Assembly: GCA_963702565.1 (NCBI GenBank)
Contig: CAVPDE010000011.1
Span: forward strand, 40,918-104,917
Length of the DNA stretch: 64,000 nucleotides
DNA from: an uncultured delta proteobacterium
Lineage (GTDB): Bacteria; Desulfobacterota; DSM-4660; Desulfatiglandales; HGW-15
Direction: 5' to 3'
Shown here: in pieces, positions 5,330-52,264 of the stretch
How the letters are laid out: every line of letters begins with the position of its first letter
How positions within the stretch are numbered: the first letter of the stretch is position 1
Program-made: the position numbers and the translations under genes
Notes under the pieces: model-generated
Database searches by the model: none
What the model was told of the DNA's origin: nothing
The model's input: only the letters and a program-made list of their open reading frames with translations

Positions 5330-5403
5330 TGGCTGGGGGAGAAGGATTCGAACCCTCGTAAACGGGGCCAGAACCCGTTGTCCTGCCGCTGAACGATCCC
5401 CCA
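5330..5403 (-). tRNA. tRNA-Gln (anticodon CTG), CCA encoded
   Basis: The reverse complement reads TGGGGGATCGTTCAGCGGCAGGACAACGGGTTCTGGCCCCGTTTACGAGGGTTCGAATCCTTCTCCCCCAGCCA. Acceptor TGGGGGA/TCCCCCA, anticodon stem ACGGG/CCCGT, loop TTCTGGC. Confidence 0.9.
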
Positions 5404-5438
5404 GCGCTGGTCGGTAATTTGGCTAAATCCAGGGGAAA

Positions 5439-5444
5439 TGTCAA
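5439..5444 (-). promoter_or_regulatory. Possible -35 box (TTGACA) of the tRNA-Gln/Glu promoter
   Basis: TTGACA on the minus strand lies about 35 nt upstream of the tRNA-Gln 5' end. The -10 region (AAATTA/CAAATT) is poor. Confidence 0.3.
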
Positions 5445-5548
5445 GGGGAAAAAGAGGAGATCACCGCAGAGAACGCTGAGAACGCGTAGAAATGATTGTG
5501 GATGTGGAGGAAGAAGGAAGGAAGAAACAGCCCGGGAACGGCAACCTG

Positions 5549-10213: not shown

Positions 10214-11188
10214 TCAAGATTGACCGACCACTTTCCAGCACCGCACCCTGTGGTCATCCCCTACGGGATAGAACTTGATTTCTTCAATCCTGCAGCGATT
10301 TTCGACCAGAGGACATCTTCCCTGGAACTTGCAACCGGGCGGGGGATTGAAGGGGCTCGGCACATCCCCTGCAAGCTCTACAACCTCCAGAGAGCTTTCC
10401 TTTCCAGGAGCGGGCACAGCCGAGAGGAGCGCGAGGGTGTAAGGGTGAAGCGGTCGGTCGAACAATTCTTCAGTGGGTGCATACTCCATGATGTGACCGA
10501 GATACATGACGGCGACCCTGTCACTGATGTAGCTCACGACATGGAGGTCGTGGGAGATGAAAAGGTAACTGAGCCCAAGACGGCTCTGGAGTTCCTTGAG
10601 CAGGTTGATGATTTGGGCTTGGATGGAAACGTCCAGGGCTGAGACCGGTTCGTCGCAAATGATGAGTGAAGGCTCTACGCTGAGCGCCCTCGCAATGCCA
10701 ATCCTCTGCCTCTGACCGCCGCTGAACTCATGGGGATAACGATCCGCGGCAGAAGGAGCCATACCCACCATGTTTAGAAGGTTTTCGACCCGCATCCTTC
10801 GTTCAGCGCGATTCCCGACCCTTATCGTTCTCCGCCCCTCCTCGATCGACTGGCCGACTGTCATCCTGGGATTCAGGGAGCCGAAGGGGTCCTGGAAGAT
10901 GATCTGCATCTCTTTTCTGAGAGGCAACACTTCTTTTTGAGAGAGAGGGGCAATGTCGCGGCCTTTGTAAAAGATAGTCCCTTGATCGGGCTCCAGGAGC
11001 CTCAGGATAAGTCTGCCGATCGTCGATTTCCCGCACCCGCTTTCTCCGACCAGACCGAGGGTCTTGCCCTGATCGATGGCGAAATCAACGCCGTCCACGG
11101 CTTTGACCCAGCCGATGACCTTTTGCAGAAAACCTCGGCGAACGGGGAAATATTTTCGGAGACCTCCGACTTTGAGCATGATGGTCAT
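10214..11188 (-). CDS. Oligopeptide/dipeptide ABC transporter ATP-binding protein (OppF/DppF-type)
   Basis: GESGCGKST, FSGGQRQR, and the C-terminal oligopeptide-transporter extension (HPYT...C..RC). Confidence 0.9.
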   Translation of the reverse strand: MTIMLKVGGLRKYFPVRRGFLQKVIGWVKAVDGVDFAIDQGKTLGLVGESGCGKSTIGRLILRLLEPDQGTIFYKGRDIAPLSQKEVLPLRKEMQIIFQDPFGSLNPRMTVGQSIEEGRRTIRVGNRAERRMRVENLLNMVGMAPSAADRYPHEFSGGQRQRIGIARALSVEPSLIICDEPVSALDVSIQAQIINLLKELQSRLGLSYLFISHDLHVVSYISDRVAVMYLGHIMEYAPTEELFDRPLHPYTLALLSAVPAPGKESSLEVVELAGDVPSPFNPPPGCKFQGRCPLVENRCRIEEIKFYPVGDDHRVRCWKVVGQS

Positions 11189-11345
11189 TAGAAAGTGCCT
11201 AAAGTGAGCTAAAGTGTCTAAAGTTGAAACCCTAAAACCGTAAACACGAAAGCGCGAAAGTAGGAAAGCACGAAAGAAGAGGGGAGTTCTATTGAAAACA
11301 GGTCATTCCTTTTCGTGTTTTCGACCTTTCGTGTCTTTGTGGTTG
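11189..11345. repeat. Composite spacer element: CTAAAGTG-unit array (11194-11224) plus an NNNGAAAG / CTTTCGTG inverted-array hairpin (11245-11342)
   Basis: AGTGCCTAAAGTGAGCTAAAGTGTCTAAAGTT, then CACGAAAG CGCGAAAG TAGGAAAG CACGAAAG, a ~25-nt centre, then CTTTTCGTG TTTTCGAC CTTTCGTG TCTTTGTG. The right arm overlaps the last 13 codons and the stop of the upstream ATPase gene. Confidence 0.85.
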
Positions 11346-12322
11346 TCCCTTCTCGCATAAAGGACGGGACAGCGGCTCAAGTGGCCGTCGCCATAATCGC
11401 AAAGGTCCGGAAACTCGATGCGACATGTTTCTCTCGCGTATGCGCACCGGGGATGAAAAGGACACCCTGGGGGCCTGAAAGCCGCATCCGGCACAGTTCC
11501 CGGAATGCTATGCAGAGTCCCGCCCCTCTTGGAGCGATGAGGAAGGGAAGCGAGGAGTCCCATGGTATAGGGATGACGAGCGTCTCCGAAAATCGTTGCT
11601 GTTGCCCCCTGCTCCGCGATTAATCCCGCATACATGACGTAAATTCGGTCGGCAATGTTGGACACCACGTTCAGATCATGGGTGATGTAGAGCAGCGACA
11701 TGCCGCGCTTTTTTTGAAGTCTTGCGAAGAGATTGAGAATCTGCCGCTGAATGGTTACGTCGAGAGCTGTTGTCGGTTCATCGGCGATGACGAGATCCGG
11801 ATTGCATGCCAGGGCCATGGCGATCATGACTCTTTGTCGCTGGCCACCGCTCAATTGATGCGGGTAGTCGTTGATCCTCTCCTCAGGAGAAGGGATGCCC
11901 ACATCGCGCAAAAGCTGTAAACACCTCTCCTGAAGCTCCGCTTTTCCCATGTGCTCATGCACGAGAATCGCCTCTTTGATCTGATCACCAACCGTGAAGA
12001 CCGGATTGAGGGAAGTCATAGGTTCCTGGAAAACCATGGCAATGCGGCTTCCCCGGATCTTCTGCATTTCCTCTTCCCCGAGTTCTAACAGGTTTCTGCC
12101 ATGAAAGAGGATCTTGCCGCCGGCGATTTCGCCGGGAGGCCGGGGAATGAGGCCGAGAATCGTGAGGGCTGAGACGGTCTTGCCGCAACCCGACTCACCG
12201 ACGAGGCATACCGTCTCTCCCTTGCGGATGTCATAGCTCACTCCGTCCAGGGCGTGAGCCAAGGTCTCATCGCCCCGGAAGTGGACCTTCAGATCCTGAA
12301 CGGATAATAAGAGGTCTTTCAT
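11303..12322 (-). CDS. Oligopeptide/dipeptide ABC transporter ATP-binding protein (OppD/DppD-type)
   Basis: [17 protein letters not shown] and HPYT. The basic C-terminal tail [13 protein letters not shown] is encoded by the repeat arm. Confidence 0.9.
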
Positions 12323-12323
12323 T

Positions 12324-12364
12324 AGTGCCTAAAGTGTCTAAAGTGAGCTAAAGTGTCTAAAGTT
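12324..12364. repeat. CTAAAGTG-unit array (4 units), left inverted repeat of the 4HB cassette
   Basis: AGTGCCTAAAGTG TCTAAAGTG AGCTAAAGTG TCTAAAGTT. It abuts the ATG of the OppD-type gene. Confidence 0.85.
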
Positions 12365-12387
12365 ATAAAAACAAGAACCAGAAGAGC

Positions 12388-12741
12388 CTATCCAGCTTTC
12401 CCAATGGAAGTGAAAATTGCTAAGAGCTCGCTGCACTCATCGTGGTCAGCCTTCAGTTCCCCCCAAGGGATCCAACCTGTCTCTTTGATGACTTCCAGCC
12501 AATACTGTGTTTCGCTAGCCTCAGTCTCACATATGGAAATCCTATTCTTGAAATCAGCCCTGCTTCTTGCTCTATTTGCTTCACGGTAATTTGCCCCGAT
12601 TGATGTACCGGACCTGGTCATTTGGTTCTTGACGACTCTACCCTCTGGTGTGTTGGGTAGACGTGTTGACAGCCGAATAATCCGGACGCCGAACAGAAGC
12701 GTTCGACGCTCCAATTCCTTTGCGAATTCCTTATTCTTCAT
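12388..12741 (-). CDS. Four-helix-bundle protein (23S rRNA intervening-sequence protein / S23p family, Avd-related)
   Basis: 117 aa. SGTSIGANYREANRARSRADF and ETQYWLE are characteristic of this family. It is inserted between the permease and ATPase genes of the peptide ABC operon. Confidence 0.8.
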   Translation of the reverse strand: MKNKEFAKELERRTLLFGVRIIRLSTRLPNTPEGRVVKNQMTRSGTSIGANYREANRARSRADFKNRISICETEASETQYWLEVIKETGWIPWGELKADHDECSELLAIFTSIGKAG

Positions 12742-12755
12742 GTTTTGACCTTCAA

Positions 12756-12829
12756 TTTTAGCTCACTTTAGCCTCCGGCCTGTAGGGCCTACGGCCCGGA
12801 GGGACACTTTAGTTCACTTTAGGCACTTC
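12756..12829. repeat. Reverse-oriented CACTTTAG units split by a GC-rich hairpin, right inverted repeat of the 4HB cassette
   Basis: TTTTAGCTCACTTTAG (12756-12771), the GC hairpin CCTCCGGCCTGTAGGGCCTACGGCCCGGAGG, then ACACTTTAGTTCACTTTAGGCACTT (12804-12828). Confidence 0.85.
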
Positions 12830-13996
12830 TCAGTATCTTTCCCTCAGCTTCGGATTCAGAATGTCCCGCAAGCCTTCACCAAAGAGGTTGAAGGACAGGA
12901 CGACGATGAGAATGGCAAACCCGGGCACAAAGGTCAGCCACGGCGCATCGAAGATGAACCTCTTTCCATCGGATAGAATGTTGCCCCACGTCGCGTGGGG
13001 CGGCGGAACTCCGAAACCGAGAAAACTCAATCCAGCCTCGGTCAAAATCGCTCCTGCAATGCCGATGGTGGCGGAAACGAGGACAGGCGCGATTGCATTG
13101 GGAATCATGTGGCGGAAGATAATCCGCAGATCATTGACGCCCAGGGCCCTCGCAGCAGTGACAAAGTCCTGTTCCCTCAGGGAGAGAAATTCAGCCCGGA
13201 CAAAACGAGCTGTCCCTTCCCAGCTGGTGAGGCCAATGACGATCATGATGTTGTAGATGCTCGGTGGAAGCAGCGCGACCACGGTGAGGATCAGGAAGAA
13301 ACTGGGGAAGCAGAGCATGATGTCCACAAATCGCATGATCAGGGTGTCCACGGAAAAGGTTCCCGCAAAAAGAAAGCGGATCCACGGGTACCGGTGGAAA
13401 GTCCTATTTCTTGATAGGGCCACAAGGGCTAATGCAACAAAACACAGGATCACTCCGACAGGCAGATTTCCTGCGGCCAGGAATCCGCCTCCAATGAGGA
13501 GGAAGAAAGAGGCGAGCACGTGGTATACCCTGACAGGCCTTTCACCGTAATACCCTGAGAGGCCACCCATGAGGATTCCGACGAGTACAGAGATTCCTAC
13601 GGCAACGAAACCGACAGTCAAAGAAACCCAAGCCCCCTGGAGCATCCTTGCGAACACATCGCGACCCAGTTCATCGGTGCCAAAGAGATAAATTCCCAAC
13701 GCAGGAATTTCCTCCGGCCGCAGAACCGCTGCGATCGGGTTTGAAAGGGGAGGCCTCAACTTCTCAGGAAGGCGCACGAGCGATGGATCGATGGCAGGTT
13801 TTGTGCCCGATGTCAGCCACACCCCTGCGAGAGCGATGAGAAAGAAAAGAACAAAGATCAAGAATCCAGCCAAAGCGAGCTTGTTCTTCTTCAGCAGCCG
13901 CCAAGCTTCTTCCCAGCGCGAACGCCGAGGCATAAGAGGAGCTTCAGGGACAGAAGTTGTTTGAGGCGTGTTTTCGATCATGACGGTGAGCACCAA
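12830..13996 (-). CDS. Peptide ABC transporter permease (OppC/DppC-type)
   Basis: Binding-protein-dependent transport inner-membrane motif (EAARALG-like: TAARALGVNDLRIIFRHMIPN). The start is uncertain: TTG 13996 or ATG 13981. Confidence 0.9.
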   Translation of the reverse strand: MVLTVMIENTPQTTSVPEAPLMPRRSRWEEAWRLLKKNKLALAGFLIFVLFFLIALAGVWLTSGTKPAIDPSLVRLPEKLRPPLSNPIAAVLRPEEIPALGIYLFGTDELGRDVFARMLQGAWVSLTVGFVAVGISVLVGILMGGLSGYYGERPVRVYHVLASFFLLIGGGFLAAGNLPVGVILCFVALALVALSRNRTFHRYPWIRFLFAGTFSVDTLIMRFVDIMLCFPSFFLILTVVALLPPSIYNIMIVIGLTSWEGTARFVRAEFLSLREQDFVTAARALGVNDLRIIFRHMIPNAIAPVLVSATIGIAGAILTEAGLSFLGFGVPPPHATWGNILSDGKRFIFDAPWLTFVPGFAILIVVLSFNLFGEGLRDILNPKLRERY

Positions 13997-14011
13997 ACAT
14001 CAAGATGCAAC

Positions 14012-14135
14012 CATGAAAGCGCGAAAAGCAGAAAGCACGAAAGAAGAAGAGGGTTCTGCTGACAAAAGGTCATTCTTTTTCGTGCTTTTATCCTTTCGTG
14101 TTTTCGTGGTTCTCTTCTTGGCATTTTAGGCATTT
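14012..14135. repeat. Second copy of the NNNGAAAG / CTTTCGTG inverted-array hairpin (14012-14109) plus a degenerate reverse CATTTTAGGCA unit
   Basis: CATGAAAG CGCGAAAAG CAGAAAG CACGAAAG ... CTTTTTCGTG CTTTTATC CTTTCGTG TTTTCGTG. It aligns over its full length with 11245-11342, roughly four-fifths identical by eye. Confidence 0.85.
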
Positions 14136-15095
14136 CTACAGTCTTATCCTCGGGTCAACGACGAGATACAGAACATCCGAGATGAAAGTCCCGATAAGTA
14201 CCAGCACTGCCGAGATGAAGTTTACGGTCAGGATCACAGGATAATCCCTTGCAAGAATCGCCTCATAAGCCATCCGCCCCAGTCCGGGCCAGGAGAAAAT
14301 GGATTCGATGATGACTGAGCCTCCGATCAACCCGGGCAGGACAAGACCAAACATGGTGACAAAGGGCAAAAGGGCATTGCGAAGAGCGTGCTTGTAATGA
14401 ACCTGCTCTGCAGGGAGGCCTTTTGCCTTGGCCGTTCTCACATAGTCCTGACCCTCCACCTCGAGCATCTGCCCGCGCACATAGCGGGTGAGCACGGCAA
14501 TGCCGCCTACAGCACCCAGAACGGACGGCAGGAGCAAATGCCAGATCCGGTCCATGACCATTCGAACCCAGGACGTATCCCCCAAGCCGAAGGTCTCCAT
14601 GCCTATGACGGGGACTTGGAAGCGATTCACTACAATAATGATGAGAATGTAAGCAAAAAAGAATCCGGGAATAGAAATGAGGAGGTAAGAAAGAAAAGTC
14701 GTAGACCGGTCGTAAATCCCTCCTCTGTGAATGGCCGCACGGATCCCGATGGGGAAGGAAAGAGTCCATGTGAGAATGGTCCCGACAATGAAGAGGGGAA
14801 GACTGTTCAGAAATCGTTCCCAGATCTTGGTCAGTACAGGCTGGTTGTCTTTCCAGGATACCGTTCTGCCTGTAACAAGATCTCTGTGGTAGTAGAGATA
14901 TTGGATGTGGAGGGGTTTGTCGAGGTGGAAGGCTTTGCGGAAACGTTCCACGATCTCAGGAGTGAAGCGGGGGTTGAGAGGGTCTACCTGGCTCGGTTTG
15001 CCGGGCGCGAGATACACAATGAGAAAAGAGACGATGGAAACGAAGAAGAGGGTGACGATCTTCTGGATGATGCTTCTGCCGATGAAAGAAAGCAT
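14136..15095 (-). CDS. Peptide ABC transporter permease (OppB/DppB-type)
   Basis: 319 aa, six TM segments, and the YVRTAKAKGL motif typical of OppB/DppB. Confidence 0.9.
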   Translation of the reverse strand: MLSFIGRSIIQKIVTLFFVSIVSFLIVYLAPGKPSQVDPLNPRFTPEIVERFRKAFHLDKPLHIQYLYYHRDLVTGRTVSWKDNQPVLTKIWERFLNSLPLFIVGTILTWTLSFPIGIRAAIHRGGIYDRSTTFLSYLLISIPGFFFAYILIIIVVNRFQVPVIGMETFGLGDTSWVRMVMDRIWHLLLPSVLGAVGGIAVLTRYVRGQMLEVEGQDYVRTAKAKGLPAEQVHYKHALRNALLPFVTMFGLVLPGLIGGSVIIESIFSWPGLGRMAYEAILARDYPVILTVNFISAVLVLIGTFISDVLYLVVDPRIRL

Positions 15096-15100
15096 AACAA

Positions 15101-15231
15101 ATGCCTAAAGGGAGAAGAAGTGTCTAAAGTGAACTAAAGTGCCTAAAGTTAAAAACCGAGTGACGAGTCAAGCAAACAAGATACAACGGACAACGGACCA
15201 CTGACTGCGGACAACCGACAACGGACAACCT
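15101..15231. repeat. CTAAAGTG-unit array (15101-15150) plus seven direct heptamers ACAACGG-type (15183-15231)
   Basis: ATGCCTAAAGGGAGAAGAAGTGTCTAAAGTGAACTAAAGTGCCTAAAGTT, then ACAACGG ACAACGG ACCACTG ACTGCGG ACAACCG ACAACGG ACAACCT. Confidence 0.85.
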
Positions 15232-15265
15232 GTTAAAAGCTAGAAACCAAAGCTTCCATCTGAAA

Positions 15266-17416
15266 CTAGCCCTCCGGACTGAAGGAGGGCGCTTCCGGCA
15301 ATTTGATCCACCTGTTGAAATAAAAAGTGTAGTTGCCGGTCTTTGTGGGTGTGATCTTTCTGTATGCGACCTTGCCTTGGGAATCCACGTCCTTGATGAC
15401 GATGCGCTTGTCCAGGATGGCGCTCCACTTGCTTACGTAAAGAAACGTGTAGGGTTGCTCAAAGGCGATGATTTCATGAAGCCGATGGCAGAAAGAAGCC
15501 TGACGCTCATGGTCATATTCTTGTCTGATCCTGACAATGAGGTCATCGGCTTCCTGGTTCCTGAAGCCTACAAAATTGAGCTGATAGGGATTGGTCTGGC
15601 TGGAATGCCAGATCTGATAAAGATCCGGCTCAATCCCCATTTGCCAGCCCAAAATCAGCGCATCGAAATCGAACTTGTTGACTCGCTCCTTGATAAAGAC
15701 CGACCATTCAAACACAGCCGTCCGGACGTCGACTCCGATTTGTCTCCAGGCATCCTGAACAATGGTCATCACGGATTTGCGAATGTCATTCCCGCTGTTG
15801 GTAATCAGGGTGAACTGGAGCTTTTTCCCATTTTTCTCCAGCCAGCCTTCCCCATTCTTCCGCCAGCCCGCTTCTTCCAACAGCTTCAAGGCCCCTGCCG
15901 GGTCATAAGGTATGGGTTTCAGATTTTGATTGTAATAGTCCGTCTGCTTCACAAAAGGCCCTGTGATCTTTTCCCCTTGACCATAAAGCACGTACCGGAT
16001 GATCTTGTCCAAATCGACGGCCATGCTCAGGGCGGTTCGCACTCGACGGTCGTCAAAAGGGGCCCGGCGAAGATTATAGCCGATGTAAGAGTAGCCGAAA
16101 GAAAGCCCTGAGAAACTCTGGTACCGAGGATCATGCTCAAGGCGTTCCACCTGATGAGGTTGAACGCCGTATTCATCGGAGGTCCCGGCATAGAACTCCA
16201 TCTCCTGGGTCAGGAGATCGGGGATGACCCGAAATGCATAGCGCTCGTAGTTCGGAGCGCCATCCCAATACTCATTGAAGCGGTCCAGAGTGATGTACTG
16301 ATCGGATTTCCATTCGCGGAATACGAAAGGGCCGCAGCCAATGGGTCGGCGGTTGAACTGGCTATCTCTCATAGAAAACTTCGCGGGATCCGCACCCCGG
16401 CTCAGCGCCTCCTTTTTAAGCGCTTCGGCATTGAGGAGATGCTCGGGAAGGATATCCATGCCCCATGTTCCTATGGCAGGAGAGTAGAGGCGCTTGTAGA
16501 CAATGCGCACCGTCAGAGGATCAAAAACGTCGACCTGCTTGACCGGTTCGTAGTCCGGAACCCGGGGAGACAGGTTCCTGGGATCCATGATGGCTTCGTA
16601 GGTGAATTTCACGTCATCCGCTGTGAAGGGATGGCCGTCGTGAAACTTCACATTCGGTCTCAGACGGAAGAGGATGATAGGGTTGTGCTCAAGGGGGGGG
16701 AGGATTTCCTTTGCCCATGTTTTTAGGTTTTCCTGAGAAGGTTTAACCCTCTCATCCGGATCAGTACTGAGAAACATGTGTGAAGGAAGGGAACTGAAGT
16801 AGCTTTCTCCGAGAAGGCTGGAAAGGTTTACAAAAAGGTCTTGATCGACTTGATGCAGAACCAATTTAATCCTGCAAGGGGCCTGAACACGGATGGTAAT
16901 TTCACTGCCTTCGTCTCCCTCCTTGCCCTTTACAACTCGTTTGGTCTGGAACTCTTGGGGCGGAACAAAGGAAATCTCCTTGATGTTTTCAACTGAGGTT
17001 CGGAGTTTTGCGTTGCTCTGGATACCGCCTGACTTGGCTTGACGGAGCAACCCGATGACCTCATCAGGGCTTGCCTTCCCAAGGCTGGGAATCTCGGCCG
17101 TCTCATTACAGTAAAAGTATGCCTCCTCATAGATCTCCCAAGAGGTTGCAAGACGGCCTCTGAAACGAAGGTCTTGGTCTCGATCAATGAGACGGTCAAA
17201 GACAAGGTTTTCTATGGCGCTGCTGGCACTGTCCGATGAGAGAATCGGGTTCAGGATCGCGGCATCACCGATGGAAGCGGTGATGTATTCCTTGAGACGA
17301 TCCGGGTTCCCCCGGGTTTGGTCTTCGTAGGTAGGCACCCAGAAATAAGACTGGAGCAGAAGAAGGATGAGCAGAAGAGGAGCTAGGATCAAGATTGTAC
17401 GGACGGAGAACCGCAT
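15266..17416 (-). CDS. Peptide ABC transporter substrate-binding protein (family 5, OppA/DppA-like, unusually long at 716 aa)
   Basis: N-terminal signal/anchor LILAPLLLILLLL. The SBP_bac_5 pattern runs throughout (FHDGHPFTADDVKFTY, ITLDRFNEYW). Confidence 0.85.
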   Translation of the reverse strand: MRFSVRTILILAPLLLILLLLQSYFWVPTYEDQTRGNPDRLKEYITASIGDAAILNPILSSDSASSAIENLVFDRLIDRDQDLRFRGRLATSWEIYEEAYFYCNETAEIPSLGKASPDEVIGLLRQAKSGGIQSNAKLRTSVENIKEISFVPPQEFQTKRVVKGKEGDEGSEITIRVQAPCRIKLVLHQVDQDLFVNLSSLLGESYFSSLPSHMFLSTDPDERVKPSQENLKTWAKEILPPLEHNPIILFRLRPNVKFHDGHPFTADDVKFTYEAIMDPRNLSPRVPDYEPVKQVDVFDPLTVRIVYKRLYSPAIGTWGMDILPEHLLNAEALKKEALSRGADPAKFSMRDSQFNRRPIGCGPFVFREWKSDQYITLDRFNEYWDGAPNYERYAFRVIPDLLTQEMEFYAGTSDEYGVQPHQVERLEHDPRYQSFSGLSFGYSYIGYNLRRAPFDDRRVRTALSMAVDLDKIIRYVLYGQGEKITGPFVKQTDYYNQNLKPIPYDPAGALKLLEEAGWRKNGEGWLEKNGKKLQFTLITNSGNDIRKSVMTIVQDAWRQIGVDVRTAVFEWSVFIKERVNKFDFDALILGWQMGIEPDLYQIWHSSQTNPYQLNFVGFRNQEADDLIVRIRQEYDHERQASFCHRLHEIIAFEQPYTFLYVSKWSAILDKRIVIKDVDSQGKVAYRKITPTKTGNYTFYFNRWIKLPEAPSFSPEG

Positions 17417-17420
17417 AAGA

Positions 17421-17680
17421 AGTGCCTAAAGGGAGAAGAAATGTCTAAAGTGCCTAAAATAGAAAACCAAAACCACAACCACGAAAACACGAAACTATGA
17501 AAACACGAAAAAAAGAAATGCCTAAAGTGAGAAAACCAGTGACAAGTGACAAGTAACAAGTGACAAAACGAGCGAAAAATAAGAACAACTAAAAAAGGAC
17601 TACTTGTCACTCGTTACTTGTGACTTAAAGATCAACGGACAACTGACCACTGATAACGGTGAACCGTGAACGATGAGCAG
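17421..17680. repeat. 260-bp composite element upstream of the SBP gene: CTAAAGTG units, a CACGAAAA half-array, a GTGACAA/TTGTCAC hairpin and seven ANAACNG heptamers
   Basis: Modules: 17421-17460 units; 17477-17515 CACGAAAA x3; 17538-17572 AGTGACAAGTGACAAGTAACAAGTGACAA facing 17600-17626 CTACTTGTCACTCGTTACTTGTGACT (about 20 of 22 complementary); 17632-17680 TCAACGG ACAACTG ACCACTG ATAACGG TGAACCG TGAACGA TGAGCAG. Confidence 0.85.
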
Positions 17681-17757
17681 CCTTTGGCTCTCAGTCTATC
17701 AGAAAATTGAAATCATGCAATTGGTAAAGTCAGGGAATTGTGGTATGAGGCTCTGTT

Positions 17758-18720
17758 ATGTTTGAAGTTCTTGAGACAGCCTGGAATGTGGCCGCAAAGA
17801 GCCGCCATGTCCGGATCAACCATGAGGCGCTGGAGAAATTCAGTCAGGAATTGGCGGAGGGCGGTCTTCCCGGACCGAACTGGGATGCGGAGCATCACTT
17901 TAAGGGAAGCGATGAAGAGACGGTCGCCTATCTCCTTGCGGTGGACACCGTCAATTTCTGTTTCTGGCCTCCTCCTGGGCAGAAGAAATGGGAAATCTTG
18001 TATAAAGGGAAACCCTATTCGGGATACTACGGACTGGCTGTCTCGTTCAAGAAAGCGCTTGAGTCAGGGATTCCTCTCGGCGACTCCTCTTTCCTGGCTG
18101 CTCTAACCTTAAAGCAACTCGATGACATTTTCTCAGGAAAAGGGGTTTTGCAGCTTCTGGACGAACGCCTGGCAAACCTGCGGGAGCTGGGCAGGGTGCT
18201 CCTCAGCGAATACAGGGGGCAGGCTTGCGAATTGGTGGCAGCCGCCGGGGGTTCGGCAATCAGGCTGGTGCAGATGCTTGGCAGGGATTTCCCCTCTTTC
18301 CGCGACCAGGCGACCTACGAAGGCGAGAGCGTGTTCTTTTATAAAAGAGCCCAGTTATTTGCCGCTGACCTGCACGGAACCCTTGGCGGCAAAGGGCTGG
18401 GGAGTTTCACCGACATGAAAGAACTCACGGCCTTTGCAGACTACAAGCTGCCTCAGGTGCTTCGCCACGTTGGGGTGTTCGAATACGCTCCTGTCCTTAT
18501 GGAGAAGGTGGACCGCATGATATACCTCGAGCCGGGGAGCGAGGAAGAGGTCGAGGTCCGGGCCAACACGATCTGGGCCGTGGAGCTCCTTCGCCGGGAG
18601 ATGAATCGTCTCGGGAAAGAGGTTCATGCGAGCGAGATCGATTGGCTTCTGTGGAATCTGGGGCAAGACGACCGATTCAGAGCAAAGCCGTACCATCGGA
18701 CAGTGACGATATTCTACTGA
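17758..18720 (+). CDS. Queuosine-salvage family protein (DUF2419 / Qng1-like)
   Basis: DTVNFCFWP, FFYKRAQLFAADLHG and LTAFADYKLPQVLR match the DUF2419 pattern as I remember it. Confidence 0.6.
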   Translation: MFEVLETAWNVAAKSRHVRINHEALEKFSQELAEGGLPGPNWDAEHHFKGSDEETVAYLLAVDTVNFCFWPPPGQKKWEILYKGKPYSGYYGLAVSFKKALESGIPLGDSSFLAALTLKQLDDIFSGKGVLQLLDERLANLRELGRVLLSEYRGQACELVAAAGGSAIRLVQMLGRDFPSFRDQATYEGESVFFYKRAQLFAADLHGTLGGKGLGSFTDMKELTAFADYKLPQVLRHVGVFEYAPVLMEKVDRMIYLEPGSEEEVEVRANTIWAVELLRREMNRLGKEVHASEIDWLLWNLGQDDRFRAKPYHRTVTIFY

Positions 18721-18722
18721 GC

Positions 18723-18948
18723 GCCTAAAGGGAGAAGAAGTGTCTAAAGTGAACTACGCGCAGCGCAGGCGCTTGCGCCGCGTGAAGTGCCCAAAGTTGG
18801 AAGAAAGGTAAGAACAACCACGAAAACACGAAAAGAGGAAAGCACGAAAAAAGAAGAGAGGTGGCACGGGCAAGCTGTGCTTGCCCGTGGTATAGAGTAG
18901 TGGACGGGAGGAAGAAAACACGGATAAGCAAGGCTTGTCCGTGCCACC
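18723..18948. repeat. Composite element in the convergent gap: CTAAAGTG units, a GC hairpin, a CACGAAAA half-array and two related 11-bp hairpins
   Basis: Modules: 18723-18755 units; 18756-18785 GC hairpin; 18826-18870 CACGAAAA units; CACGGGCAAGC-TGT-GCTTGCCCGTG (18873-18897); CACGGATAAGC-AAG-GCTTGTCCGTG (18920-18943). Confidence 0.8.
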
Positions 18949-18992
18949 AGAACAAGGCTTAGGGTCCGTTTACCGTGCGCCGTGTCCCGATT

Positions 18993-20333
<1,341 letters not shown>

Positions 20334-28675: not shown

Positions 28676-30292
28676 TCACCGGGGACTCCAAAGAGGCTGG
28701 TGAAAGTCTTGTTCCATGGGGGGCTGCTTGAGCGGCCATTCGGCCCGTGCCAGAGAAGAAGCCAGCCCAGGGATGACATCGAGAAGTTCACCGGCCAGGA
28801 TGCCGGACTGTCCCATGTCCTCGGAAAGCCGATCGGCAGCCAGCCCGTGAAGGTAGGCCCCGGCAGCAGCAGCTTTGGCCGGGGGCCATCCTCTTGCGAG
28901 AAACCCGCCGATGAGCCCTGTCAGCACATCTCCGGAACCGCCGCTGGAGAGAGCAGGATTCCCTGTGGGGTTGATGTGGATCTGCCCCTCGGGCTCAGCA
29001 ATGACCGTACGAGCCCCCTTCAAGACAAGACAGCACCTATGCTTCTGAGCAAAAGCTTCTGCGACGCCGATTCGATCGGCTTGAACCTCGGAGTTGCTGA
29101 TCCCGGCCAGCCTTGCCATTTCACCAGGGTGAGGGGTCAGGACCACTCGGCCCCTGCACTTGTCCAGGACGCCCAGATCAGAGGAAAGGGCATTCAATCC
29201 GTCCGCGTCAATCACCATGGGTAAAGGGCACCCGGCCACGATTCTCCTCACGAGTAAGCTTGTCTCCGCGTGAGTCGAAAGCCCGGGCCCGATAGCCACC
29301 GCTGTCTTGCCCTTCATAAGTCTGAAGATTTCTTTCTCCGCTTCCAGGGAGAGACTGGATTCCGCAGTCTCGGGCAGGGGGAAGGTCATGGCCTCGGTCA
29401 GCTTGTTTTCCAGAATGGGATTGAGACTTCGAGGGATGCCGAGAGTCACGAGGCCTGCTCCGGCCCTGAGAGCGCCGAGGGAGGTGAGGGTTGCGGCTCC
29501 TGTTTTCCCTGTCGATCCTGCGAGAACGAGCAGGTGACCCCTGTTGCCCTTGTGGATGTCCGGTTTTTCTGAAGCGATGAGATCATGGAAATCCCCGGCT
29601 CCGATCAAACGGTAACGGCCGGGGATTCGTTCGACTACCGCGTCAGGGATTCCGATGTCGATTTGAACCAGTCGGCCCACCAGACCGGCACCCGGGAAAA
29701 CCAGTTGCCCAACCTTGGGGAGACCGAAGGTGATAGTCAGGTCGGCCTGGACAGCGACCCCCATGACCTGCCCGGTGTCGGCATTCAAGCCGGACGGGAT
29801 ATCGATCGCTGTCACGGGTTTGTTCGCCCTGTTGAGGTCGTCTATAACCCGGGCATAGAACCCTCGGACCGATGAATTGAGCCCTGTGCCCAGAAGGCCG
29901 TCGATGATGAAGTCGCAATCTTTAAGCAGGCGCCGCTGCTTTTTCCATTGCGCCTCAGAGGTCACTTCCAGAAGGTCCAGGCCCATCCGCCTGAGGATTT
30001 GGAGATTGATGAGGGCATCCCCCGCTATTTTACTGAATTCCGCAAGAACCAGGACCGTCACCTTGAGCCCGGCTTCGGAGAGAACCCTCGCCATCACGTA
30101 ACCGTCCCCACCGTTGTTCCCTCGACCGCAGAGAATGAGCACTCGGGAATGAGGGGGTGGAGCAAAGTGAGCCAGAAACACCCTGCTGGCTCCCCTGGCA
30201 GCGTTTTCCATGAGGACCACACCGGGGATGCCGATTTCCTCTATCGTGAGGCGGTCCATCTCTTGCATTTCAGAGGCTTTGACCAATCTCAT
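28676..30292 (-). CDS. nnr: Bifunctional NAD(P)H-hydrate repair enzyme (epimerase + ADP-dependent dehydratase)
   Basis: The YjeF-N pattern (GRGNNGGDG) and the YjeF-C carbohydrate-kinase pattern (GGSGDVLTG) are both present. The start was moved to ATG 30290-30292. Confidence 0.9.
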   Translation of the reverse strand: MRLVKASEMQEMDRLTIEEIGIPGVVLMENAARGASRVFLAHFAPPPHSRVLILCGRGNNGGDGYVMARVLSEAGLKVTVLVLAEFSKIAGDALINLQILRRMGLDLLEVTSEAQWKKQRRLLKDCDFIIDGLLGTGLNSSVRGFYARVIDDLNRANKPVTAIDIPSGLNADTGQVMGVAVQADLTITFGLPKVGQLVFPGAGLVGRLVQIDIGIPDAVVERIPGRYRLIGAGDFHDLIASEKPDIHKGNRGHLLVLAGSTGKTGAATLTSLGALRAGAGLVTLGIPRSLNPILENKLTEAMTFPLPETAESSLSLEAEKEIFRLMKGKTAVAIGPGLSTHAETSLLVRRIVAGCPLPMVIDADGLNALSSDLGVLDKCRGRVVLTPHPGEMARLAGISNSEVQADRIGVAEAFAQKHRCCLVLKGARTVIAEPEGQIHINPTGNPALSSGGSGDVLTGLIGGFLARGWPPAKAAAAGAYLHGLAADRLSEDMGQSGILAGELLDVIPGLASSLARAEWPLKQPPMEQDFHQPLWSPR

Positions 30293-30671
30293 CGTTTCCC
30301 TCAAGGACCACCACAGCCATACCGTAGCGGCCTTCATCGGAAAGGCTCAGGTGAAAACGGGTGATCTGTTTTTCACGGCAGATCTCCGAGGATCTGCCCT
30401 GAAGTCTCAGGGCGGGCCGCCCTCCAGGGTGGTGGAAGACCTCAATGTCCCGCCACCGGATCCCTCTCCGCATTCCAAGCCCGATGGCTTTGGAAAAGGC
30501 CTCCTTGGCTGCGAATCGAAGAGCCAAAGGAGAGGCCGGGTACGCTCTTTTGAAGCAAAACTCCGCTTCCTGGTCCGTGAAAACTCTCTTCACGAAACGA
30601 TCTCCCCACCTCTGGAGCACCGTTTCCAGGCGCTGGATATTCACGAGATCAATGCCCACACCAAAGATCAT
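30270..30671 (-). CDS. acpS: Holo-[acyl-carrier-protein] synthase
   Basis: MIFGVGIDLV, FAAKEAFSKA and LSLSDE. Confidence 0.9.
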   Translation of the reverse strand: MIFGVGIDLVNIQRLETVLQRWGDRFVKRVFTDQEAEFCFKRAYPASPLALRFAAKEAFSKAIGLGMRRGIRWRDIEVFHHPGGRPALRLQGRSSEICREKQITRFHLSLSDEGRYGMAVVVLEGNDEIGQSL

Positions 30672-30677
30672 TGAAGA

Positions 30678-30882
30678 AGTGCCTAAAGTGTACTAAAGTG
30701 TCTAAAATGCCTAAAGTTGAAAAAGAGAATACAGAATCAAAAGAATGGAGTGTTGGAGTAGTGGAGTGATGGAGTATTGGGTTTAAACCAGTACTCCAGT
30801 GCTCCAACGCTCCATTACTCCATGCTATTAACAGCAACGGACAACTGACTATTGATCACGGACTCCAGGCAACAAGCAACCT
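30678..30882. repeat. Composite spacer element: CTAAAGTG units, a TGGAGTNN / NNACTCCA inverted arrays hairpin and seven heptamers
   Basis: Modules: 30678-30718 units; 30745-30780 ATGGAGTG TTGGAGTA GTGGAGTG ATGGAGTA TTGG; centre GTTTAAA; 30788-30823 CCAGTACT CCAGTGCT CCAACGCT CCATTACT CCAT; 30834-30882 GCAACGG ACAACTG ACTATTG ATCACGG ACTCCAG GCAACAA GCAACCT. The element ends one nucleotide before the pdxJ stop codon. Confidence 0.85.
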
Positions 30883-35680: not shown

Positions 35681-35782
35681 ACTTAGAATAAAAATTAATA
35701 TTTTAAAATAAAAAACATTATTTTAACTAATTTTATAATATGTCATTAAGTAATAATATAATAGAATTCAATATTATAAATT
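35681..35782. other. ~100-bp extremely AT-rich island in otherwise GC-rich DNA
   Basis: ACTTAGAATAAAAATTAATATTTTAAAATAAAAAACATTATTTTAACTAATTTTATAATATGTCATTAAGTAATAATATAATAGAATTCAATATTATAAATT. By eye it has very few G/C. Confidence 0.9.
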
Positions 35783-35809
35783 CCGCTAGCACAAAAGCAT
35801 GGAGGGTCA

Positions 35810-51018: not shown

Positions 51019-51104
51019 TTGGAGTAATGGAGTACTGGAGTAGTGGAGTGTTGGGAATCGCAGTTCTGTTCACTCCATTACTCCATTACTCCATCATTCC
51101 ATCC
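51019..51104. repeat. TGGAGTNN / NNACTCCA-type inverted arrays (8-nt period)
   Basis: TTGGAGTA ATGGAGTA CTGGAGTA GTGGAGTG TTGGG, a centre, then CACT CCATTACT CCATTACT CCATCATT CCATCC. Confidence 0.85.
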
Positions 51105-52154: not shown

Positions 52155-52264
52155 TAGGAGTATTGAATGCTGGAGTAATGGAGTACTGGAGCGCTGGAGT
52201 AATGGTGGAATAAAGAAAAAGAGGATACCCAGTACTCCAAGACTCCATCACACCATCACTCCAT
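52155..52264. repeat. TGGAGTNN / NNACTCCA-type inverted arrays (third copy)
   Basis: TAGGAGTA TTGAATG CTGGAGTA ATGGAGTA CTGGAGCG CTGGAGTA ATGGTGGA, a centre, then CCCAGTACT CCAAGACT CCATCACA CCATCACT CCAT. Confidence 0.85.

Follow-up and report, generated by a model that had tools for sequence, protein, structure and literature searches.

Tandem-repeat arrays in the opp operon spacers of an uncultured Desulfobacterota bacterium: probable foldback gene cassettes and their remnants

Why are the spacers of a bacterial operon built from short tandem units? The question is raised by a 64,000-nt stretch of DNA from an uncultured delta proteobacterium (Desulfobacterota; GenBank assembly GCA_963702565.1, contig CAVPDE010000011.1, positions 40,918 to 104,917; here the window), in which the genes of a minus-strand oligopeptide/dipeptide ATP-binding cassette (ABC) transporter operon, oppA (15266-17416), oppB (14136-15095), oppC (12830-13996), oppD (11303-12322) and oppF (10214-11188), are separated by arrays of 7-9-nt units. 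An earlier reading of the letters alone, the original prediction, took the arrays for an operon spacer design comparable to repetitive extragenic palindromic (REP) elements and bacterial interspersed mosaic elements (BIME). We report that the spacers are probably filled by foldback gene cassettes, which form a superfamily, and by the products of their decay; that the arrays represent cassettes, derivatives without an open reading frame (ORF) and remnants is the firmest part of this reading and highly probable, and the mode of action proposed below is tentative, with rather more doubt than conviction attached to it. A spacer design does not agree with what was found, since the arms belong to gene-bearing cassettes (IVP/TIGR02436 or GxxExxY/TIGR04256, see below) that recur in unrelated contexts across phyla, modules have been swapped among strains with 97-99% identity, and the gene-less hairpins derive from cassettes by deletion. 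The cassettes are a cross-phylum hairpin gene family and not a property of the opp operon.

The arrays listed in the original prediction were all found at their coordinates, with a period of 7-9 at every site according to Tandem Repeats Finder (TRF), and they are indeed intergenic: 20 of 21 TRF arrays with a period of 6-9 lie within the non-coding 12% of the window. The CTAAAGTG unit is present in 15 exact copies (0.8 expected from shuffled sequences) and CACGAAAR in 19 (5.5 expected). Moreover, the recurrent arm-centre-arm architecture with several unit sequences was borne out, and Rfam, as anticipated, lacks the arrays: scans of the whole window at gathering thresholds and of 11000-19100 at E ≤ 1 returned two tRNAs and two chance matches only.

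The window has one complete cassette (12323-12829, type 1), between oppC and oppD; its gene (12388-12741, minus strand), situated between inverted CTAAAGTG arrays, had been overlooked. This gene encodes a 117-amino-acid (aa) protein of the 23S rRNA intervening-sequence protein (IVP)/four-helix bundle family (Pfam PF05635, E 1.3e-18; TIGR02436, E 1.4e-23; 2rld in the PDB, E 2.8e-20); an exact look-up of the protein gave no record, and the cassette had no blastn match in plasmids. In transcript sense the purine-rich 5' arm of CUAAAGUG units (12742-12829) begins directly after the oppC stop codon, and the pyrimidine-rich 3' arm with four CACUUUAG units (12323-12387) ends 1 nt before the oppD ATG (12322). 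The two arms are of the CTAAAGTG/CACTTTAG kind, and over 26 nt (12332-12357 versus 12803-12828) they are 92% complementary. This is the anatomy of the cassettes in general: 3-5 tandem units of 8-9 nt form a purine-rich array, which is followed by a small promoterless ORF and a complementary pyrimidine-rich array. The whole is placed in sense between two cistrons; it starts at the stop codon upstream, or on it, and ends at the downstream start codon. As a separate observation, the 5' arm of the window cassette is interrupted at about 12772-12804 by a 32-33-nt GC-rich hairpin, TCCCTCCGGGCCGTAGGCCCTACAGGCCGGAGG, which has no counterpart in the sister species (L127 among our fetched loci, which are numbered with the prefix L) and may be a further small REP-like repeat.

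A second type of cassette occupies the same site in other strains. Six conspecific contigs, each from another sample, have the same OppB sequence, with 97-99% identity of the DNA; in all six assemblies the oppC-oppD spacer carries, in place of the IVP gene, a 135-aa GxxExxY ORF (PF13366/TIGR04256, PD-(D/E)XK-like). The arms of this type 2 cassette are CACGAAAG/CTTTCGTG, i.e. octamer arrays of CACGAAAR and YTTTCGTG, and these are nested within degenerate CTAAAGTG-like units. Over 9 kb of strains 97-99% identical, all structural differences fall in modules: between the window and its conspecifics they comprise a one-unit indel, the IVP/GxxExxY swap, a replaced oppA-oppB module and a 21-nt heptamer array. 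That unit number would vary by slippage had been foreseen and agrees with the one-unit indel of 10 nt, located in the array 11194-11224. Taken together, the alignments show that cassettes nest and are exchanged between strains. The GxxExxY protein has weak similarity to Cas4-like nucleases, PADLOC gave no defence-system assignment, and no relative was found in the PDB or among viral contigs.

The gene-less elements can be traced to such cassettes. Two hairpins of GxxExxY type, at 11245-11342 with CACGAAAG/CUUUCGUG octamer arms (z -3.8 against dinucleotide shuffles) and at 14012-14109 in the oppB-oppC spacer (z -6.7), are alike end to end (82% identity, in line with the four-fifths judged by eye earlier). 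Specifically, 14012-14109 equals the cassette of the conspecific contig L001 (7905-8462) less its ORF, having in common with it both arms, the segment preceding the ATG (GAATGA..TTTTGTCA) and the segment following the stop codon. In a more distant relative (L207) the oppD-oppF hairpin retains the first codons of the ORF, and the centre of short CTAAAGTG hairpins from other genomes is composed of the GCGCTTTCAGCGC mini-hairpin that precedes the IVP start and the GGAGCGAAGCGAC motif that follows the IVP stop. These comparisons show that the arm-centre-arm hairpins are cassettes minus the ORF; solo and half arrays are the leftovers of further deletion or replacement.

The oppD-oppF spacer gives an example of such turnover. 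The sister species, L127, has DNA 84-88% identical to that of the window and has one IVP cassette in the oppC-oppD spacer and another in the oppD-oppF spacer, the second one (2441-2931) being intact. The solo CACUUUAG array abutting the oppF ATG in the window (11194-11224, minus strand) is 92% identical to the 3' arm of this second cassette and is its remnant; the remainder has been replaced by the hairpin 11245-11342. In transcript sense the 5' arm of that hairpin (11303-11342) now forms the 3' end of oppD, contributing 13 codons and the stop codon, while in L127 (region 2360-2455) OppD ends in ...LYARRSV*. The C-terminal residues and the stop are repeat-encoded in both species, and insertion of the hairpin has shifted the oppD stop codon. 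In one strain of a related species (L214, 3030-3180) the oppD-oppF spacer is wholly different from that of L207-L213, being made of TGGAAGAG octamers and GCTGANN heptamers, and shares with it no more than the final two CACTTTAG-like units ahead of the ATG.

How general is the association between arms and ORFs? The metagenome scan for the window IVP was seeded with a two-sequence alignment, a five-sequence IVP alignment being too divergent, and gave at least 569 relatives (600 candidate stretches listed). Among the matches listed, 66 IVP loci had enough flank to be counted; of these, 43 had two or more CTAAAGTG-like units upstream together with two or more CACTTTAG-like units downstream, compared with 2 of 585 controls. 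Among the small ORFs of the fetched loci (2269), inverted-repeat flanks were found for 78% of 77 IVP-like ORFs and for 0.4% of 2191 others, most of the latter being antisense ORFs inside the same cassettes. Distant IVPs have the same layout built from other units (GCAAGACN at L021, GTGAAAAA at L023), and GxxExxY ORFs have CACGAAAR...YTTTCGTG flanks in all five independent contexts (L001, L207, L322, L325 and L327). In 34 of 40 loci the IVP gene has the same orientation as both of its neighbours, and in none is it antisense to both.

For the CTAAAGTG pattern in genome contigs the raw number of matches is uninformative, as we estimate that about 555 are expected by chance; the signal is in the taxonomic skew, the unit numbers and the inverted partners. 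Among the matches listed, 120 genome loci with CTAAAGTG arrays include 59 inverted pairs with the purine arm first and a single one in the reverse order. The hairpins belong mostly to Desulfobacterota, Planctomycetota and Bacteroidota, but also to Patescibacteria and others, and a few of the metagenome-assembled genomes (MAGs) are labelled archaeal (ANME-2, Woesearchaeota). Across these groups the copies without an ORF have 80-98% identity, and within one MAG two contigs carry copies that are 92% identical. In viral contigs the array pattern gave 105 stretches with inverted pairs in two and an IVP in none, and phages are therefore no evident carriers. Finally, solo CACTTTAG arrays in other genomes lie after stop codons in 25 cases and before starts in 12; a start-codon-specific role of these arrays is accordingly unsupported outside the lineage of the window.

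Are the cassettes maintained, or are they decaying junk? The IVP gene of the window compared with its L127 orthologue has a ratio of non-synonymous to synonymous substitutions (dN/dS) of 0.076 and a dS of 0.80 (oppD, 0.082 and 0.83), and the corresponding dN/dS for GxxExxY is 0.089 (opp genes, 0.07-0.08). Between species the arms are 91-96% identical, as against 55-72% at fourfold sites of adjacent genes; for the 3' arm 12323-12387 and its orthologous L127 arm the value is 91%. Since ORFs and arms are both conserved the cassettes are maintained, either under selection or by being homogenised through conversion among copies. Moreover, the dS of GxxExxY is 0.99 and that of its flanking genes above 2.3, and this difference points to a more recent shared ancestry of the GxxExxY copies than of their host genes.

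Inverted-array hairpins fold far better than dinucleotide shuffles (z -3.8 to -8.4 for the seven main ones), in accordance with what was predicted for the spacers as a whole, although this does not extend to the direct heptamer arrays, whose z is about 0, and the GCAGTA hairpin folds less strongly (z -2.3). The stems consist of 5-7-bp helices separated by regular 1x1 to 3x3 loops, and the observation that only a 5-nt core is complementary in several arms holds for the hairpin at 30742-30830, where 5-bp helices are parted by 3x3 loops.

How might such elements work? We suggest that the cassette ORF is expressed by read-through from the host operon, and that the arms pair within the operon transcript and are possibly processed, by analogy with the intervening sequences (IVSs) of 23S rRNA, in which ORF-bearing IVSs are cut by RNase III at their terminal stem (PMC4990558). 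With the arms paired, the stop codon on one side and the start codon on the other would come to lie close together, and in this way an operon could tolerate the insertion. Spread and turnover would be due to horizontal transfer plus recombination or gene conversion via the dispersed arrays, perhaps assisted by GxxExxY as a putative nuclease. The tandem units may have been created by slippage, and they might allow the arms to pair in several registers or offer repeated binding sites to the cassette protein. A wider proposal, which is conceivable but which we consider doubtful, is that the IVP and GxxExxY cassettes constitute an unrecognised class of autonomous, promoterless, operon-riding elements in which each protein copies, homes or processes the cassette via its own arms (CTAAAGTG with IVP, CACGAAAG with GxxExxY), the 23S rRNA IVSs being the rRNA-resident minority.

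Several observations weigh against reading the arrays as foldback cassettes. No mobility machinery was identified and no transposase was seen beside any cassette; the longest common flank word for 22 cassettes was 3.4 nt as compared with 3.07 nt for shuffled pairings, which is a weak negative for target-site duplication because the boundaries are fuzzy. The dS of the oppC-oppD IVP cassette is the same as that of the host genes; the cassette has been stable since the split of the sister species, without visible mobility there, and the strong conservation of arms and ORF fits a benefit to the host as well as it fits selfishness. On the sense strand the stem mismatches are 89 G:U and 88 A:C; as there is no excess of wobble pairs, pairing in the transcript is not demonstrated as a selected property, and the equal counts would fit a constraint at the DNA level or one symmetric between strands as well. 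None of the fetched loci had a conserved 23S or 16S motif, and a location in rRNA genes was accordingly rejected; what ties the cassettes to the 23S IVSs is the protein family, together with the layout of stem, ORF and stem. Furthermore, the cross-domain spread could be inflated by errors in MAG binning, in particular for the rarer taxa, and the direct heptamer arrays fall outside what the cassette model accounts for.

The alternative that survives best, although we regard it as rather unlikely, is that the tandem units are binding sites for the cassette's own protein (IVP on CTAAAGTG-type units, GxxExxY on CACGAAAG), so that a DNA-level interaction between arm and protein, and not RNA pairing, is selected and drives copying or homing, much as for the subterminal repeats bound by transposases or the REPs bound by RAYT proteins. 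Each protein is consistently paired with its units, GxxExxY with CACGAAAR in five contexts out of five and the IVP subfamily with CTAAAGTG in most of the 66 loci, and the other units at L021 and L023 go with distant IVPs; however, co-inheritance of ORF and arms accounts for this pairing without any recognition, and units of a very different kind go with IVPs that share 66-69% identity with the protein of the window (GGAGT-type at L156, AAGTTAWA at L165). An arm of 3-5 units may be compared with the five chains with which 2rld, the closest solved IVP homologue, was deposited, and both the Cas4-like similarity of GxxExxY and the strand symmetry of the mismatches suit such binding; on the other hand the units drift gradually, and neither a target-site duplication nor a PDB relative of GxxExxY was found.

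The original prediction, in which the hairpins are host-selected intercistronic RNA elements that act on mRNA stability like REP/BIME, the CACUUUAG arrays are leaders independent of a Shine-Dalgarno (SD) sequence and the ORFs are incidental, is in our view unlikely, and slightly more so than cognate binding. The folding and the conservation of the arms well above fourfold sites speak for it, and so does the absence of an SD-like sequence before the five genes with a CACUUUAG array immediately next to the ATG (10214-11188, 11303-12322, 14136-15095, 15266-17416 and 30270-30671, with an assumed anti-SD), many other genes of the window having one; a published parallel is given by the TAACTGA repeats located just 5' of start codons in Beggiatoaceae (PMC4679880). 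However, modules of orthologous spacers are swapped or absent between strains 97-99% identical and in L214, unrelated operons from many phyla have this ORF family between the same units, solo arrays elsewhere are found after stop codons more often than before starts, and the sense strand has no G:U bias. The cassette ORFs are, moreover, not passengers, because they are under strong purifying selection and in sense orientation. Finally, that the arrays are neutral, microsatellite-like slippage products of relaxed intergenic DNA with no element identity, for which the changes of whole units between strains and the very long arrays at L036, L109 and L188 could be cited, is extremely improbable and already effectively refuted by the specific association with two protein families, the conservation of arms where neutral sites are 55-72% identical and the fixed polarity of 59 to 1, in addition to near-identical non-coding copies in distant taxa.

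Where do the foldback cassettes, as the preferred reading has them, stand among known systems? The 23S IVSs of Leptospira and Coxiella with their S23p/IVP ORF are related through the protein, which is of the same family (PF05635/TIGR02436) as that of the window, and they too have terminal inverted repeats that form a stem round a small promoterless ORF within a host transcript, and a sporadic distribution suggesting horizontal transfer (PMC4990558). They differ in lying in helix 25 or 45 of 23S rRNA, whereas the cassettes lie between protein cistrons (Rfam detects no rRNA in the window), and in having a unique 28-bp stem instead of arrays of tandem 8-9-nt units. The cassettes, unlike the IVSs, also have a second type with GxxExxY and abundant ORF-less and remnant copies, and their ORF is under strong purifying selection whereas the Coxiella IVS ORF is reported to be decaying.

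[quoted passage not shown] Chunjie, according to its citation in PMC3184786, can lie within operons without breaking them, as do the cassettes. In contrast to MITEs, no transposase parent or target-site duplication was found; the parent encodes a 117-135-aa protein and the arms are made of tandem sub-units. With REP/BIME and REPIN-RAYT systems the cassettes share extragenic palindromes between cistrons, inverted pairs and proposed roles in mRNA stability, and just as RAYT genes are flanked by REPs the cassette protein gene is flanked by its own repeats. REPs are, however, single 20-40-nt GC-rich palindromes with GTAG/CGTC heads (PMC3733652), and membership of REP/BIME was rejected for the cassettes, since their arms are arrays of purine-rich 7-9-mers without such a head. 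Unlike in REPIN-RAYT, the flanked protein is not a Y1 transposase (none was present among ten window proteins scanned against Pfam) and its gene is multi-copy.

The direct heptamer arrays are closest to the short tandemly repeated repetitive (STRR) sequences of cyanobacteria and the TAACTGA repeats of Beggiatoaceae, Cyanobacteria and Bacteroidetes (PMC4679880), which likewise are tandem, direct and intergenic, are patchily distributed across phyla and often end beside a start codon without an SD. The window heptamers CAACTGA, CAACGGA and TAACGGT are 1-2 mismatches away from TAACTGA; their orientation is different, as the units, NAACNGR when read on the plus strand, run antisense to the minus-strand genes that lie downstream, whereas TAACTGA reads forward 5' of the start. 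That study has one inverted repeat among 170 sets and does not describe inverted arrays round an ORF (PMC4679880). Most window arrays, in contrast, are inverted octamer or nonamer pairs round an ORF.

In architecture the cassettes recall the foldback (FB) transposons of Drosophila, whose long terminal inverted repeats are composed of short tandem sub-repeats, with or without an internal coding segment. These are eukaryotic, of kilobase scale and with unrelated proteins, and the likeness is an analogy of architecture only. Candidates for related systems with repeats were also considered: a CRISPR array was ruled out because the units are 7-9 nt, head-to-tail and with gaps of 0-2 nt as compared with 24-47-nt repeats and unique spacers, and integron cassettes were rejected on their defining features. 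No description of tandem-unit hairpin cassettes with these ORFs was found in the literature, although most subscription journals were outside the search and a prior description is possible.

With these data, two very large families of unknown function, TIGR02436/PF05635 and TIGR04256/PF13366 (for GxxExxY, 7,928 of 8,000 scored candidates passed E ≤ 1e-10), gain a genetic setting as hairpin-delimited cassettes in operons, and the 23S IVSs would, as our data suggest, be one habitat of a much wider class of elements. Hypotheses offered by this setting are RNase III processing of operon mRNAs, cognate recognition between protein and repeat, and initiation without an SD after CACUUUAG arrays. There are also consequences for annotation, since arrays can alter the C-termini of host proteins, as in OppD, may mimic CRISPR-like arrays in automated screens, and are places where structural variation between strains is concentrated while the genomes are otherwise nearly identical. 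Many GxxExxY homologues (P0002-P0036) are called at 160-170 aa as compared with 135, apparently because gene callers extend the reading frame across the purine-rich 5' arm, and the annotated N-termini are therefore inflated. A large CRISPR-discovery screen lists '23S rRNA IVP' with CRISPR or divergent direct-repeat arrays (PMC10910872), and it is a speculative possibility that tandem-unit arms triggered this association.

The remaining arrays of the window are of the same kinds. That their unit sequences are unrelated was overstated: an AGTG core is common to CTAAAGTG, TGGAGTG and CAAGTGA, and because of this the TGGAGT hairpins and CAAGTGA heptamers of the window can be tied to the CTAAAGTG family. 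Cassette arms at other loci mix CTAGAGT with TTTGGAGTG units, in some cases alternating, and the units form a drift series from CTAAAGTG via CTAGAGTG to CTTAAAGTA; the CACGAAAG units are a separate family. Solo CACUUUAG arrays on the minus strand abut the ATG of oppB (15101-15150, with the compound unit CUUCUUCUCCCUUUAG) and of oppA (17421-17460). The proposed module order of heptamer array, hairpin, CACUUUAG array and AUG is complete before oppA and acpS and partial between oppA and oppB. Before oppA it includes a hairpin with GTGACAA/TTGTCAC heptamer arms (17538-17626, z -6.1), and before acpS, in the pdxJ-acpS spacer (30678-30882, minus strand), the series of modules is of the same kinds as in the opp spacers, with a CACUUUAG array (30678-30718) abutting the acpS ATG (30671), a TGGAGT-unit hairpin (30746-30826, z -7.4) and a heptamer array (30834-30882).

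Of the three direct arrays said to consist of exactly seven heptamers, the first (15183-15231, minus strand, seven NAACNGR heptamers in plus-strand reading, period 7 with 6.7 copies, z -0.1) is clean, and those at 17632-17680 (minus strand, z -0.5) and 30834-30882 have diverged; all three are diverged copies of one dispersed repeat of about 49 nt with NAACNGR units, and at the site of the first the conspecific contigs have another module. At L026 (6084-6172, 'Candidatus Desulfacyla euxinica') a direct array of GAACATC-type heptamers lies in the loop of a CTAAAGTG hairpin, a hint that a physical link between foldback cassettes and direct heptamer arrays exists in other genomes as well. The conspecific contigs L001 and L003 have three CACGGNN heptamers in a 21-nt array that the window lacks; its position corresponds to 18971, just 3' of the stop codon of ahcY.

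Both half copies (17477-17515 and 18819-18870) proved to be genuine single arms of CACGAAAA type (strand unassigned), the former unpartnered and with an isolated CTAAAGTG unit (17522-17529) beside it, and the latter with its CACGAAAA-type arm placed at 18819-18850. On the plus strand, CTAAAGTG-type units with a small GC hairpin between them (18723-18800) lie directly 3' of the stop codon of a queuosine-salvage gene, and two further octamer-arm hairpins are found at 51020-51102 (TGGAGTAA/ACTCCATT, z -8.4) and 52171-52264 (TGGAGTAA-type, z -7.3). An element of about 90 nt at 18860-18948 represents another dispersed repeat family, without tandem units, in which CACGGACAAGC/GCTTGTCCGTG motifs alternate in orientation and are closed by GGTGG...CCACC (z -9.2); a paralogue (L001, about 5400-5490) replaces the heptamer array in the conspecific oppA-oppB spacer. 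Finally, two genes are separated at 35683-35783 by a strongly AT-rich island, which contains a palindrome as well as tandem repeats of 15 and 20 nt and is unlike the remainder of the window with its 54% G+C.

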